A DNA stretch of 63,986 nucleotides, filler included, from Limisphaerales bacterium (GCA_044225505.1; 12 parts of 12 records of this genome joined end to end with filler, not necessarily neighbours in it), one strand, 5' to 3'. Shown: positions 6,075-63,986, numbered from the whole stretch's first letter. The notes: generated by a model from the letters alone, not told the origin. Numbers and translations: made by a program.

Positions 6075-6174
6075 NNNNNNNNNNNNNNNNNNNNNNNNNN
6101 NNNNNNNNNNNNNNNNNNTTAATTAATTAANNNNNNNNNNNNNNNNNNNNNNNNNNNNNNNNNNNNNNNNNNNN
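6075..6174. other. Artificial contig spacer; same spacer at 11891, 17596, 23256, 28917, 34439, 39872, 45196, 50519, 56598 and 61858 (100 bp each)
   Basis: 44 N + TTAATTAATTAA (stops in all six frames) + 44 N, repeated identically. Confidence 0.99.
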
Positions 6175-6189
6175 TCGAAAGGATAGTGC

Positions 6190-6640
6190 GTGGGATTTGG
6201 TCATGAGCAGTTGGACGTGTCCCGGGCTGCCATCGCTGACGTGGGCTGAGCGCATCATTTCTGTGTGGACCTGAAAGGTCACCGCAACGCGAAGGATCAG
6301 CTTCTGCGCGCTTCGCAGGCGATCCCGCTGAACATCGCCGAAGGCAATGGAAAGGCAACCGACGGCGATCGACGGCGTTATTTCGAGATTGCACGCGGCT
6401 CTGCCCTGGAGTGTGGAGCCATTCAAGATGTGTTACAGGTGTGCGGAGCTCTCGCCGCGGAGGAAAACACGAGCCGCAAGCCGATGTTGGACCGTATTGT
6501 CGCGATGCTGACGAAACTCGGGCAGCGTGGGGACACGGTTCACGAGGAATCGGCTGATCACGACGTGCCCAGCAAGGATACCGATACCAATACCGATTCC
6601 GACCCCGAAGGAAGTATGCAACCGGAAAATCGCCAACCGG
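6190..6640 (+). pseudogene. Four-helix-bundle protein (23S rRNA IVS protein / Avd-like family) with premature stop
   Basis: GTG 6190 gives MGFGHEQLDVSRAAIADVG*, with in-frame TGA at 6247-6249, then KDQLLRASQAIPLNIAEGNGK...YFEIARGSALEC. The frame now runs on into the antitoxin ORF. Confidence 0.8.
6577..6608 (+). repeat. Degenerate hexamer tandem repeat (GATACC)n at the 3' end of the four-helix-bundle gene
   Basis: GATACCGATACCAATACCGATTCCGACCCCGA; homologous to 62814-62840. Confidence 0.85.
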
Positions 6641-6696
6641 GCGCTCGGCAAATAAGCGCCCTTGCCCGTGCATCGTTGCAGAATTGCCTTTGCCGT

Positions 6697-6912
6697 ATGC
6701 CGACCGTTAACGAAATCGAGAAGCTGGCCCTGGCGCTGCTAGAGACGGACCGGGCGATTCTTGCCTCCACGCTGCTCGATTCACTGTCGCCGATCCTGGA
6801 CGATGAGGACGAGGGCATAGCGGAGGCGTTGCGAAGGGACTCGGAGCTCGAGGCAAATCCATCGCTCGGTCTGAGCCTCGAGCAGCTAGACCAGCGGATC
6901 ACGCAGCTTTAG
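6697..6912 (+). CDS. Putative addiction module antitoxin component, no adjacent toxin
   Basis: MPTVNEIEKLALAL..DRAILASTLLDSL...EALRRDSEL pattern; 71 aa. Confidence 0.7.
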   Translation: MPTVNEIEKLALALLETDRAILASTLLDSLSPILDDEDEGIAEALRRDSELEANPSLGLSLEQLDQRITQL

Positions 6913-7499: not shown

Positions 7500-8699
7500 T
7501 CAGCCGCCCAGCCCGCGCCAGAGCATCTCCAACGAGAGGAGCATATACGAGGTGGCCAAGGCCGGTTCTTTCTCCCACCATCGCGCATTGTCGTTCATCC
7601 AGGAGCCGTCGGGTTTTTGAAGATTGATCAGCTTCAAGGCCAGGTCCTGGCGCCAGTGGGGATGGCCAGCTTTGATCATTTCCACATCGCTCGAGCCGGA
7701 TGCGGTCAATGCTTTCGTCATGGTGTGGAAGTAGAAAAACAGTCCCGCGGAACCCATCCCAGGGTTCTCTTCCAAGGTATAGTTGTTCTTCAGCCATTCG
7801 ATCACCGCGCTGACCCGAGGATCGTCCGGCGAAAGCTTGGCGTAGACGTAACTCAAAAGCCCCGCGTAGCTGATACTGCCGTAGGATCGAAGCGTGACCC
7901 GGCCGGTCGTGGTGTTCGTGTCCCCACCCGCGTTGCTCCGACCGGAATGGTAAACAAACCCGCCGAGGTCTTTGGGGGCGGACGAGACCCAAGGTTCTTT
8001 GTTGTGGCTGGGCAGATTCTGGCAGCTTTGCAGGAAGTGAATGGCAGCTTCCCAGTTTAAGTCATTGGCTTGGCCCGCAGTCTGGTCCGCGACGAGGCGC
8101 CGGCTGTAATGCATCGCTTCCAAAGCCAACAAGGTGTTGCTCATGTCGGAGACCTTGTCGGACGGGAGCCCGTACCCGAAACCGCCGTCGAACGGAGTAT
8201 CGAGCTTTCCCTTTTCACCGAAATCATGTTGGGTCCCGATCAGGAAACCCCGGGCTTTACGGACGACGGGATCGTATTTCGGATCGTTACTGGCCAGGAA
8301 TGCCATCATCGAAACGGCGGTGTTGTAGGTGGGCAGATTGGTGATGCAAATACTGCCGTCAGGACGCGCTTGTTTGAGGAGATAGCTCAGCGCTTTCTGC
8401 AGCTGGCCCGAGTCTTGGCCTCGGTATCGATCCATGGGATCGCCACAGAACGCCATGGCCGCCAAGCCCGTCACGGCGGGGTGATCGGCGGTTTGCCAAT
8501 AGCCTGCTGGCTCCTGATGTTTAGCCAGCCAGTCCAGGCCACGATCGATGGCATGCTGGATCTCGTTTCGAACGGATTGGTTGTCTTGAGTCAAGACAAC
8601 CGCTGGCGCAGAGGTTGGCTCCGCTACGGAGTTTAGAATAGACGCGCCCGCGAGCGCAGCTGCGGAAAAAGTCCAAAGGGCGGCTGGAAGAATCTTCAT
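7500..8699 (-). CDS. Exported prenyltransferase/squalene oxidase repeat (terpene cyclase-like) protein
   Basis: QW-like repeats (GLDWLAKHQEPAGYW, LINLQKPDGSW), DGGFGY and DMSNT; signal peptide. Confidence 0.85.
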   Translation of the reverse strand: MKILPAALWTFSAAALAGASILNSVAEPTSAPAVVLTQDNQSVRNEIQHAIDRGLDWLAKHQEPAGYWQTADHPAVTGLAAMAFCGDPMDRYRGQDSGQLQKALSYLLKQARPDGSICITNLPTYNTAVSMMAFLASNDPKYDPVVRKARGFLIGTQHDFGEKGKLDTPFDGGFGYGLPSDKVSDMSNTLLALEAMHYSRRLVADQTAGQANDLNWEAAIHFLQSCQNLPSHNKEPWVSSAPKDLGGFVYHSGRSNAGGDTNTTTGRVTLRSYGSISYAGLLSYVYAKLSPDDPRVSAVIEWLKNNYTLEENPGMGSAGLFFYFHTMTKALTASGSSDVEMIKAGHPHWRQDLALKLINLQKPDGSWMNDNARWWEKEPALATSYMLLSLEMLWRGLGG

Positions 8700-8992
8700 G
8701 GTGTCTTGAATAAGCCCCAAAGAAGGTTTGGAGGCAAACGATTTCGCTCTTTGGGGATAAAATGTCAACACGAGCTTAACTGTATTAAGACCAACCCTTT
8801 ATAGACCGCCTGACTCTGGTCTCCGCCATTCCTAGAGGGGGGCGCTCGTGGACCTTGGAGGTGGTGGCGGTGGCGTCATGCAGACTCGATGGCACGGCGT
8901 AAGGGCGATTTTCTGTCATTGCTTGGAACGTCGTTCCCCGACAGGATTCGCAGACAACACCAAGGATGGTGTTGAGCATGTCCCCTCTATTC

Positions 8993-11890: not shown

Positions 11891-11990
11891 NNNNNNNNNN
11901 NNNNNNNNNNNNNNNNNNNNNNNNNNNNNNNNNNTTAATTAATTAANNNNNNNNNNNNNNNNNNNNNNNNNNNNNNNNNNNNNNNNNNNN

Positions 11991-61857: not shown

Positions 61858-61957
61858 NNNNNNNNNNNNNNNNNNNNNNNNNNNNNNNNNNNNNNNNNNN
61901 NTTAATTAATTAANNNNNNNNNNNNNNNNNNNNNNNNNNNNNNNNNNNNNNNNNNNN

Positions 61958-62011
61958 GGCCGCATCCAACTGCTGTGTGACGCCTGCCGCGAGGCGTTTT
62001 CAAAGGTGTAA
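61958..62011 (+). CDS. 3' end of a cassette ORF (stop codon inside attC R'')
   Basis: GRIQLLCDACREAFSKV*; the TAA lies within GTGTAAC. Confidence 0.5.
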   Translation, partial: GRIQLLCDACREAFSKV

Positions 62012-62101
62012 CAAGTCGATGCATCGAAGGAGCAGCGAGCCAGCCCTTTGTGGATCCGAGCGCCCTCGGGTGCTGCTCCTCGATGATCTTCGTCGTTACG
62101 C
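62006..62101 (+). mobile_element. attC site 1
   Basis: R'' GTGTAAC; GATGCATCGAAGGAGCAGC pairs with GCTGCTCCTCGATGATC leaving two unpaired bases; R' GTTACGC. Confidence 0.88.
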
Positions 62102-62104
62102 AGA

Positions 62105-62602
62105 GTGAGCGCCTGGCACGTCATCTCACTTTTTGTGTTCTTTTCGGCGACAGTGATTCGTGCTGATTCGCCGTTGCCTCCCGCCAAGCGATATCAGGTC
62201 GAGAGCCCGTCGAAAAAGTTCATAGCGACGGTTGATCCAAAAAGCGGCGTGACCGTCCAGTCTGCTGGCGCTAAGGAGTCGCTCTGGCGGGCAAAGAGGG
62301 TTTGGTCTCGGGATAGTGTTCTTGCCGACGACGGAGAGCACTTCATCACCGGCTACAACGGTTTGAACCTGATCCCGCTCGACTACACGACTAACTTGGT
62401 CCTGATTACGTTTTGGCATCGAGACCGGAAAATCCGGGAAGTCACGGTGGGGGATCTGTTCCCGAACACCCACATCCTACGGCGGACAGTGTCACACTAC
62501 GACTGGGGCCATATCCAAGGCATCGAGGACAACATTCTTCTCGTGGAGCGGTGCGACAGAAAGAAGCTCAGGTTTGACTTCCGAACAGGGGCGATCAAAT
62601 GA
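62105..62602 (+). CDS. Gene-cassette-encoded exported hypothetical protein
   Basis: Signal peptide, 165 aa; starts 3 bp after R' and stops 1 bp before the next R''. Confidence 0.85.
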   Translation: MSAWHVISLFVFFSATVIRADSPLPPAKRYQVESPSKKFIATVDPKSGVTVQSAGAKESLWRAKRVWSRDSVLADDGEHFITGYNGLNLIPLDYTTNLVLITFWHRDRKIREVTVGDLFPNTHILRRTVSHYDWGHIQGIEDNILLVERCDRKKLRFDFRTGAIK

Positions 62603-62603
62603 T

Positions 62604-62696
62604 GCGTAACGAGACATTGGACCGAGCAGCGGCGGGCCAGACTCTTGCCACTTCGGAACCTCTCTTGCTCCGCTGTCGGTCGATTCGTCGTTGGCG
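62604..62696 (+). mobile_element. attC site 2
   Basis: R'' GCGTAAC; ATTGGACCGAGCAGCGG pairs with CCGCTGTCGGTCGAT with unpaired bases; R' GTTGGCG. Confidence 0.88.
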
Positions 62697-62915
62697 CAAA
62701 AGAGGTGTCGGAATCGGAATCGGGATCGAAAGGATGCGGCCTGGGATTTGGTCGTGAGCCGTTGGACGTGAACCACGCTGCCATTAACTACGTGGGCCGG
62801 TTCTATCCAGGAACGATACCGATACCGATACCGACCCCGAAGGAAGCATGCCGCCGGCAAATCGCCAACCAAGCGCTTCACCGAATGCAGCTCCGCCGCG
62901 TCGGTGACCTTATCG
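62691..62915 (+). mobile_element. ORF-less gene cassette: internally deleted four-helix-bundle cassette with inverted hexamer repeats
   Basis: 62726-62797 matches 6175-6246 and 62814-62870 matches 6577-6638. (TCGGAA)n at 62708-62731 is inverted relative to (CGATAC)n at 62814-62840. Confidence 0.82.
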
Positions 62916-62921
62916 TTAGCC
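62863..62921 (+). mobile_element. attC site 3 (59 bp)
   Basis: R'' CGCCAAC; TCACCGAATGC pairs with GCGTCGGTGA; R' GTTAGCC. Confidence 0.85.
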
Positions 62922-62932
62922 AAATTTCGCAG

Positions 62933-63986
62933 ATGATGCGTTTTCCATTTTGGTGCATTTGCCTGATCGCAGTCTTGATACTTCTGAGCGTGCATGCCTT
63001 CGGGGAGCCGTTCCGAAATCTGGGTTTCGAGGAGGCCGTTACCAATAACATTTCGCTGCTCGAACGCCCAGCCGGGCAGATCGGGTTGGGTCCCGTTTCC
63101 GAGTTATTGCCTGGGTGGCAGCTCTCGCAGGGTCCCAACGCTTTAACTGATGTCGGCGTGGTGATTGGGCCGTTTGATCCTCCCCCCACCGAACCCGCTC
63201 TTTTCAGTTCGTTTCCAGCGCTGGAAGACTTCATAGAGGGGAGTTACGCGCTGGCGCTCAGGAGTTCTCGTGAGATGCCGTGTTCTTTGGTTCAGGAAGC
63301 AACGATCCCAGCGGACGCTTTTAGCCTTCGTTACAAGCATTTGGGAGATCCATTCAGAGTTGAGTTCAATGGCCAAACAATTCCGCCGTTGCTTGGGCGG
63401 TTTGCCGACGCAGGTGGATCGCCGCAGTATCCCGCGTTTAGTATTGGCGCTTTTCGGGGCCAAAAGGTCGCACTAAGGTTCATCCAGCAATTAAGCGATA
63501 GGGATACGTCTCGCACGTTTTTAGCCAGTGCCATTGATCAGGTGGAATTCAAGGGAGCGACTCCTATTGATTACTGGGCGGCAAAGGATTCGGGCGTTCC
63601 TGGGATCTCGCTTCGGCGGGTTGCGGAGGGCCCTAACGGCGCGATAACAGTCGGAGAGCGCGGAACGATTCTGACATCAACGGACGGCCAACGATGGCTG
63701 CTCGCGGCAAGCCCAACCACCAACTCCTTGTATGGCGTGGTCTATGGCCAGGGACTTTGGATAGCAGTGGGAACCAAGAGCACAATCCTCACGTCCTTCG
63801 ACGGACGGCAATGGTTTCTTCGGGCTACGGATGAGGCGGGCAGCTTTTCTGCCGTGACATACGCGAGGGGCATCTTCGTAGCGGTGGGACGACAAGGTTC
63901 ATATGGCAATCCGCAAGGCAGGCTTTGGACTTCGGTGGACGGGGTGACGTGGAGAGACAAGAGTCCCTTTTCGGGTGCGGGGGTGT
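62933..63986 (+). CDS. Large exported protein with BNR/Asp-box propeller repeats (3' truncated; not in ORF track)
   Basis: Manual translation MMRFPFWCICLIAVLILLSVHAFGEPFRNLGFEEA... is open to the window end, with TSTDGQRW, TSFDGRQW and TSVDGVTW repeats. Confidence 0.85.
   Translation, partial: MMRFPFWCICLIAVLILLSVHAFGEPFRNLGFEEAVTNNISLLERPAGQIGLGPVSELLPGWQLSQGPNALTDVGVVIGPFDPPPTEPALFSSFPALEDFIEGSYALALRSSREMPCSLVQEATIPADAFSLRYKHLGDPFRVEFNGQTIPPLLGRFADAGGSPQYPAFSIGAFRGQKVALRFIQQLSDRDTSRTFLASAIDQVEFKGATPIDYWAAKDSGVPGISLRRVAEGPNGAITVGERGTILTSTDGQRWLLAASPTTNSLYGVVYGQGLWIAVGTKSTILTSFDGRQWFLRATDEAGSFSAVTYARGIFVAVGRQGSYGNPQGRLWTSVDGVTWRDKSPFSGAGV

Follow-up and report, generated by a model that had tools for sequence, protein, structure and literature searches.

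Our analysis indicates that the 225-bp interval at 62691-62915 of the window (the whole 63,986-base stretch of DNA that was analysed) is probably, at about 70%, a dead relic cassette devoid of an ORF that was copied by an integron integrase. The preliminary description had taken it for a derivative of a four-helix-bundle gene, a view that is borne out by PF05635/TIGR02436 homology and by an internal deletion. The ancestral cargo would have been a self-contained module of the intervening-sequence (IVS) type, made up of a 5' hexamer array, a ribosome-binding site, a PF05635/TIGR02436 gene of about 130 codons and a mirror-image 3' array, and in single-stranded form the two arrays would pair into a stem that encloses the gene. 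Codon 20 may then have been fused to the last few codons by a single internal deletion of about 320 bp, which brought the arms to about 88 nt from each other, and a later change would have turned the start codon into CTG. As the gutted cassette kept its attC, the integrase may well have continued to excise it and insert it anew at G|TT, and duplication of arrays would have added copies, which could account for at least seven with the same joint, one of them first behind an attI. In the window copy a helix of 25 positions (21 paired) could still form, and it would enclose nothing; we infer that in this copy the arms are inherited rather than selected.

The cassette and its parent gene

The window joins 12 contigs (C98, C99, C101 ... 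C119, C298) of a 9.04-Mb draft genome in 342 contigs, through linkers of the form N44-TTAATTAATTAA-N44 at 6075-6174, 11891-11990 ... 61858-61957. Because these contigs are separate, adjacency across a linker is an artefact of concatenation, and the "full" copy on C99 and the "empty" copy on C298 are not array neighbours. The cassette sits in contig C298 (2,029 bp, window 61958-63986), and window 6175-6720 corresponds to positions 1-546 of C99. The features are as follows.

6175..6655, + strand: the genome's sole full-length copy of this type of gene, at the start of C99, with a four-helix-bundle domain, a GTG start, TGA at codon 20 (about 6247-6249) and its 3' arm at 6577-6608
62604..62696, + strand: attC of the preceding cassette, from R'' GCGTAAC (62604-62610) to R' GTTGGCG (62690-62696), recognised by its bottom-strand fold and sequence relatives
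62691..62915, + strand: ORF-less cassette of 225 bp that opens with the TT of the upstream core and closes with the G of its own, with the same borders as the sister at C60:64749-64969
62708..62728, + strand: 5' arm, (TCGGNA)3 TCG, here TCGGAA TCGGAA TCGGGA TCG
62729..62734, + strand: AAAGGA ribosome-binding site, abutting the 5' arm, placed as in gene-bearing metagenome relatives
62741..62800, + strand: remnant of codons 1-20 of the four-helix-bundle gene, with CTG for ATG, LGFGREPLDVNHAAINYVGR, 79% identical to C99 1-72
62801..62813, + strand: deletion joint and last bases ahead of the tail, TTCTATCCAGGAA, the same joint as in 7 of the 8 short copies aligned
62814..62840, + strand: 3' arm, (CGATAC)3 CGACCC CGA, which intact genes translate as an (Asp-X)n tail
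62863..62921, + strand: the cassette's own 59-nt attC-like site, CGCCAAC (62863-62869), a CACCGA/TCGGTG stem and GTTAGCC (62915-62921), repeated behind other cassettes

With the TT of one GTTRRRY core at its start and the G of the following core at its end, 62691-62915 represents one integron cassette. The preliminary description had proposed a 225-bp cassette there with a ribosome-binding site, about 20 codons, both arms and an attC-like site, and every one of these parts was found in its place. When compared by BLAST with the genome, the cassette matches contig C99 at positions 1-72 and 408-471 only, and these matches at both gene ends indicate that about 320 bp of the gene are missing, close to the 310 bp or so that had been estimated before. 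The first remnant codon is CTG in the window copy and ATG in the sister copies, whose N-terminus reads MGFGHERLDV...VGW. No NCBIfam model matched the cassette's own 95-aa frame, and because just 20 N-terminal codons are left the cassette is a remnant and not a member gene of PF05635/TIGR02436. A scan for promoters and terminators found none inside the cassette (no sigma-70-like promoter) and one promoter-like site upstream, at 62574-62603. The 2,029-bp contig holds no rRNA or other Rfam family at E<=1, and the cassette is flanked by cassette ORFs and attC sites, not by an rRNA helix.

The gene at the start of C99 is matched by TIGR02436 with 57.3 bits (cut-off 24) and by PF05635 with 60.5 bits (cut-off 33.8; match at window 6265-6600), and among solved structures 2gsc is the closest to it in sequence. 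The PF05635 "intervening-sequence protein" family is functionally uncharacterised according to excerpts of two reports (PMC4990558; bioRxiv 10.1101/2024.02.27.582315), and an excerpt of a third describes it as resembling or related to the four-helix bundle Avd of diversity-generating retroelements, DGRs (PMC10053308). The likeness to Avd is that of a distantly related fold; in contrast to DGRs, no reverse transcriptase or template/variable repeats lie nearby, and the arms are not DGR repeats. The preliminary description had used 6190-6640 as its full comparison copy. A four-helix-bundle gene does lie there, but codon 20 (C99:73-75) is TGA where the sisters have TGG, so the only full-length copy is itself dead, and the end of the contig cuts away its 5' arm. 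The left breakpoint of both main deletion classes coincides with this nonsense codon (...GGGCTGG| and ...GGGTTGG|). The gene interior (C99 83-311) has no match elsewhere in the genome save in the C100 paralog. The paralogs on C100, C319 and C56 carry arms of other sequence, which are again mirror images of each other (e.g. CGTAAT/GATTAC arrays).

The genome encodes an integron integrase, IntI, at C60:69303-70238 (TIGR02249, 267.6 bits, cut-off 265), with cassette arrays flanking the gene on both sides, and a degraded intI is found in C311. The interval C60:64,400-68,900 is an array of small units split by attC-like palindromes; it contains small genes, HicAB-like ones among them, and the present element in several copies. 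One of these, the sister at C60:64749-64969, is 93-94% identical to the window cassette and directly follows 132 bp that copy the intI 5' end and attI at 88.6% identity, which places this "empty" cassette first behind an attI. On C311 the first cassette that can be recognised next to the degraded intI is an "intermediate" copy. As a separate observation, C60:64380-64745 (an N-terminally truncated intI with a copy of the attI region) and C60:69303-70300 (the complete intI, attI and a second array) form tandem integron platforms 4.6 kb apart.

The borders of the copies are shared and their surroundings are not. To the left of G|TT the seven copies with the same joint (C298, C60, C132, C148, C162, C252, C324) have unrelated sequence, and homology among copies stretches 17-25 nt outward from the 5' arm, where it meets the G|TT core, and on the other side runs through the 3' arm and enters the attC. 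Between the window copy and the C60 sister, divergence sets in immediately right of the G|TT of their common 59-nt attC-like site, which recurs after C60:64788 and after two other C60 cassettes, and whose fold at 62863-62921 is no better than those of shuffles. On its bottom strand the attC at 62604-62696 folds into one imperfect hairpin with the R boxes paired (-19.3 kcal/mol). It has relatives in the arrays of C60, C273, C311 and C221, with 15 sites on 7 contigs counted by sequence similarity, a figure that does not size the arrays. Borders, repeats and folds, and not scores under a calibrated attC model, served to identify the attC sites reported here; a home-made structural attC finder was dropped, having returned 7 sites in the 6.3-kb C60 array as against 6, 6 and 3 in controls of the same length.

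With GTTRRRY borders and the G|TT crossover, an IntI and attI in the genome and differing array contexts, 62691-62915 is, on sequence grounds, best explained as an ORF-less gene cassette of a chromosomal integron, and IntI itself appears to have done the copying of the gutted cassettes. The integron assignment made beforehand is upheld, as IntI scores above the TIGR02249 cut-off and the same G|TT borders lie behind attI and behind unrelated attC sites. None of 12 further genomes from the same family contains the cassette DNA, one of them showing a 44-bp attC-like match only. The C132 and C252 copies had been suspected of carrying an insertion sequence in their attC, and no transposase-sized ORF was recognisable downstream in C132.

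Mirror-image arms in the window copy and in the gene family

The complementarity of the arms in the window copy is imperfect yet exceeds chance. The best ungapped register pairs 21 of 25 positions (fraction 0.84), and the duplex has an energy of -34.2 kcal/mol compared with -20.2 +/- 3.8 in 200 shuffles of the 3' arm, none of which reaches it. The preliminary description had called the arms complementary, which holds up against the shuffles (0/200), yet the match is not a full one (21/25). The window copy does carry terminal inverted repeats that close a stem around an insert.

Such arms are a trait of the family. An ungapped inverted-repeat score was calculated for each gene by comparing its upstream 200 nt with its downstream 240 nt, with the maximum of 150 random genomic controls as the threshold. 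Among relatives from the genome collection, 70 of the 74 evaluable loci (of 80) exceed the control maximum, and inverted repeats have a median score of 22.2, direct repeats of 8.5 and controls of 8.0. By record title, relatives with both gene and arms include Rhodopirellula sp. SWK7 (L119) and an Akkermansia muciniphila MAG (L045, L046). In the window's subfamily, metagenome relatives pass at 52 of 59 evaluable loci (of 80). The presence of flanking arms in homologs had been set beforehand as the test on which the proposal could fail, and these two sets, 70/74 genome and 52/59 metagenome loci, speak in its favour. In the subfamily relatives from metagenomes, (TCGGNN)n is followed by GAAAGGA and ATG upstream of the gene, and an in-frame (GAY-NCC)n tail downstream mirrors the 5' arm.

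One could imagine that the arms resemble each other by composition only, a repeat in the 5' UTR and an acidic (Asp-X)n coding tail being complementary by accident. It is true that the hexamer equals two codons and that the 3' arm of this subfamily is read in frame to give a D-x-D-x tail. However, the duplex energy of the window copy was reached by none of the 200 shuffles, the arm pattern yields 30 arrays in the genome and 0 in the reversed-genome control, and the relatives pass the inverted-repeat test while their direct-repeat score stays at background. In the sister subfamily, moreover, the stop codon precedes the 3' array, which mirrors the 5' array all the same. Unit order is also mirrored beyond that of unit-shuffled arms (mean z 1.78; 16 of 65 loci at the 5% level and 10 of 65 at 1%), and at some loci the palindrome runs on into unique sequence; from these two properties it follows that the two arms are one true inverted repeat and not two arrays of one motif. 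Chance or compositional resemblance is ruled out by the shuffles, the family-wide inverted-repeat tests and the mirrored unit order, and we give it practically no weight.

Two other tests of the arms were set aside. RNAduplex on 150 x 200 nt gave -94 kcal/mol for cognate and -74 kcal/mol for non-cognate pairs, with 11 of 74 loci below the 1st percentile, and was rejected because the loci share the same hexamer. A strict criterion of ATC/GAT every 6 nt found both arms in 23 of 74 loci and in 0 of 2000 controls; it undercounts, since many relatives use units of the GAGTAA or GAGCAA type, and was superseded by the ungapped inverted-repeat score.

Among 380 arm mismatches in 2,589 positions there was no G.U excess on either strand (72 vs 63, p=0.49), and RNA-level selection is therefore not demonstrated.

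Several metagenome relatives are plainly bounded by attC: of 26 loci inspected by eye, at least L125, L126, L127, L137, L138 and L140 show GTTRRRY ... RYYYAAC ... GTTRRRY. Regex-based attC marks near the metagenome relatives, with all three present at 2 of 59 loci, are unreliable. Other modules are placed differently. In different Chthoniobacter-like genomes (L047, L048, L053, L104, L121) the module lies between the same two conserved genes, as a syntenic intergenic insertion and not as a cassette. At L045, L046, L050, L068 and L100 the palindrome continues for 15-19 bp past the hexamer arrays into unique sequence, and this extension is common to the unrelated genomes of L050, L068 and L100, in the manner of the terminal inverted repeat of a transposable unit.

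Gutted copies and the fate of their arms

A catalogue anchored on the gene start lists 17 copies in the genome. Eight of them are "empty", or short, with the 3' arm at +72 to +77 nt from the anchor, and 7 of these 8 have one common joint. Another seven are "intermediate", with the arm at +144, one shared out-of-frame joint and a frame of 26 codons left. The remaining two are the full-length copy with the nonsense codon (C99) and a truncated one (C74). The preliminary description had asked for full and empty copies to be counted, and this count (17 anchored, 8 empty, 7 intermediate, 1 full with a nonsense codon, 1 truncated) is the answer. A third class of joint is seen in C5, C313 (x2) and C53 (x2), and at least four deletion classes keep both arms. 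With a strict arm pattern of at least 3 units per arm, 22 arm pairs of the window cassette's hexamer type are found in the genome, with loops of 48-390 nt, and 0 of them enclose an intact gene.

The repeats are also abundant beyond the catalogue. Metagenome contigs from three studies give a summed depth of 58-182 over 62670-62870 compared with about 5 in the flanks, with its peak over the 3' arm; a depth of this kind in contigs reflects repetition, not expression. A genome-wide TRF run returned 174 period-6 arrays of at least 3 copies, 73 of which derive from AATCGT (28), ACCGAT (19), AATCGG (18) and ATCCCG (8). All four are arm types of four-helix-bundle modules, and one AATCGT pair only, that of C100, encloses an intact gene. 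Some copies have mixed arms. The empty copy at C148:3460-3731 has its 5' arm replaced by units of the CGTAAT type, and both there and at C324:756-1003 long CATAAT/CGTAAT arrays, the arm type of the C100 paralog, lie just past an R''-like box, giving hybrid modules.

How the arms have fared in the gutted copies can be judged from the seven with the same joint, in which conservation is 0.75 for the 5' arm, 0.83 for the coding remnant and 0.96 for the 3' arm. The 3' arm is the most conserved segment, with 24 of its 27 columns invariant. The remnant peptide is not conserved and its start codon is lost in the window copy, and the 5' arm has been swapped in C148 and is degenerate in C162. A comparison of the window copy with its 94% sister revealed no compensatory changes. 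The median pairing fraction is 0.85 in 21 gutted copies and 0.88 in 52 gene-bearing metagenome modules (score p=0.02, fraction p=0.06, for copies that are not independent). Arms decaying at the neutral rate in empty copies had been named as a result that would tell against a working stem, and the data divide on this point: the 5' arm is indeed less conserved than the dead remnant, whereas the 3' arm and the pairing level point the other way. Neutral decay of the arms is not demonstrated, because the 3' arm is unusually conserved and pairing in the gutted copies is near the gene-bearing level. Even in the absence of selection, arms might stay alike through replication slippage and templated correction of quasi-palindromes.

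Many short, internally deleted copies that keep the inverted ends of a gene-bearing parent are the mark of MITEs, and in REP/RAYT "REPtrons" a small gene is flanked by repeats that form hairpins and that are found on their own as well. The gutted copies studied here likewise keep inverted arms, and their hairpins both flank a small gene and stand alone. The cassettes might thus be non-autonomous elements of a comparable kind, with the mirror arms serving as cis sites for mobility or copying of the four-helix-bundle module, through a DNA or ssDNA hairpin, and with the protein supplied in trans or dispensable; in a variant, the stem of the arms would draw the flanking attC hairpins together and boost excision by IntI. 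The 22 gutted arm pairs with 0 intact among them and the survival of arms in several deletion classes are what such elements would leave behind. The bottom-strand ssDNA fold of attC-cassette-attC has z = -2.96, and the number of repeat units varies, one metagenome contig having an extra GTCGGA. Two further sets of copies agree with it. On C79 (6050-6880, x4.5, and 8290-8790, x2.5; locus L204) tandem units of about 200 bp lie on either side of a transporter-like gene of 459 codons that is read from the opposite strand, each unit having a 5' arm, a 57-nt interior, a 3' arm and a truncated attC; this looks like satellite-like amplification of a hairpin shell outside a normal cassette. On C34 (7944-8091 and 8316-8463) the arms are those of C53/C313 and the interior is reverse-complemented, as expected from recombination between inverted arms, which also predicts the reversed gene polarity seen in some Planctomycetota relatives.

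Against this, all well-resolved copy borders are the integron G|TT and not the ends of the arms, and among the copies we saw neither target-site duplications nor insertions delimited by the arms. The genome is without a cognate intact four-helix-bundle gene, the paralogs of C100 and C319 carrying other arm sequences. Sparing of the arms in four deletion classes is not so unlikely by chance, a few per cent by a rough estimate, and the classes are maybe nested and not independent. MITEs and REP/RAYT also differ from the present case in that the borders here are integron cores and no transposase or HUH enzyme takes part. We therefore regard arm-driven mobility as quite improbable, and return to a relic moved by its attC.

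Intervening sequences, ORF-less cassettes and a possible role of the stem

Intervening sequences with an ORF occur in the 23S rRNA of Leptospira, among others. The best described for our purpose is that of helix 45 in Coxiella burnetii, where excerpts of PMC4990558 report a PF05635 (S23p) ORF in a loop closed by a 28-bp stem, its excision by RNase III, cutting of this stem in vitro by the recombinant enzyme, and a long-suspected origin of ORF-bearing IVSs from mobile DNA. The module studied here is alike in that a PF05635-family gene is enclosed by terminal inverted repeats that form a stem. It differs in that the cassette lies outside rRNA, its stem consists of tandem six-base units, it is carried by an integron and its gene has been deleted. 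By analogy, our best guess is that the arms of an intact module would form a closing helix in the transcript, which RNase III would cut, freeing the mRNA of the small gene from the host transcript.

The same analogy raises the possibility that the stem is the working part, as in an IVS emptied of its gene: the hairpin would be kept although the gene is lost, and its processing by RNase III or a similar enzyme in array transcripts would insulate or stabilise the mRNAs of neighbouring cassettes, much as rRNA intervening sequences that lack an ORF continue to be excised. Excerpts of bioRxiv 10.1101/2024.02.27.582315 describe many of the rRNA insertions at known IVS sites as short and ORF-less, and report that they are frequent at the sites which also take ORF-bearing ones. 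According to this report and PMC4990558, IVSs are cleaved by RNase III. A stem of this kind would agree with arms that pair in gutted copies nearly as well as in gene-bearing relatives, with the 24 invariant columns of the 3' arm, and with the pairing of the arms in both the MFE and the centroid fold of the 225-nt RNA. Solo hairpins are found as well: at L129, L131, L134 and L150, all from metagenomes, intact subfamily genes have complete hairpins with loops of 13-50 nt on one or both sides, an arrangement that allows alternative pairings, either as local hairpins or as a gene-enclosing stem. Opposed to this are the lack of a G.U excess among arm mismatches and of compensatory changes relative to the 94% sister, a 5' arm that is conserved less than the dead remnant and is swapped or degenerate in two copies, and a z-score of only -1.1 for the fold of the whole cassette. 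Weighing these, we consider a processed, insulating stem unlikely.

The preliminary description had gone further and suggested a new module in which the stem could act without the protein. The cassette itself, its origin by deletion and the family-wide arms bear the description out in part; neither a new system nor a stem that acts alone is supported by the arm mismatches, which have no G.U bias, or by the interior of the cassette, which has no promoter, terminator or Rfam match. Arms with no visible decay, a conserved 3' arm, deletion classes that keep the arms, 22 gutted pairs and solo hairpins do together fit a hairpin kept or copied for its own sake. On such a view, to which the tandem hairpin units of C79 also lend support, the hexamer hairpin, and not the protein, would be the persistent core of the four-helix-bundle module, kept and multiplied after loss of the gene as an "empty intervening sequence" in integron arrays, with possible roles as an RNase III-type processing or insulating site or as an ssDNA clamp that joins the flanking attC hairpins and raises the cassette's own rate of excision and re-insertion. 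We find this doubtful, and the dead relic cassette remains our preferred reading.

ORF-less gene cassettes are a known class in integrons, and those of oral origin have been studied for promoter activity, according to excerpts of PMC6557892 and PMC1382264. Like them, the present cassette is bounded by attC, has no usable reading frame and is found in cassette arrays; unlike the oral ones, it has no sigma-70-like promoter inside and has a traceable origin as a gutted, hairpin-enclosed gene. A literature search that left most subscription journals outside its range found nothing that ties PF05635 genes to short-tandem-repeat hairpins or to integron cassettes.

What the copies suggest is that a package of gene and hairpin travels as an integron cassette and that, after gutting, the shell of hairpin and attC goes on multiplying. 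The full, intermediate, empty and tandem copies amount to a natural "protein-minus" series, which would be able to separate roles of the stem from those of the protein. If the stem is inert, they would make a clear case of sedentary integron arrays filling with dead, self-copying cassettes.

In a single metatranscriptome run (X20), reads cover only window 63632-63780, outside the cassette. An open frame at 62645-63985 runs from the previous attC through the empty cassette and in phase into the gene of the next cassette, and this read-through is probably coincidental. The gene of the next cassette likely has its real start at ATG 62933 or 62936, which is followed by a signal-peptide-like N-terminus.
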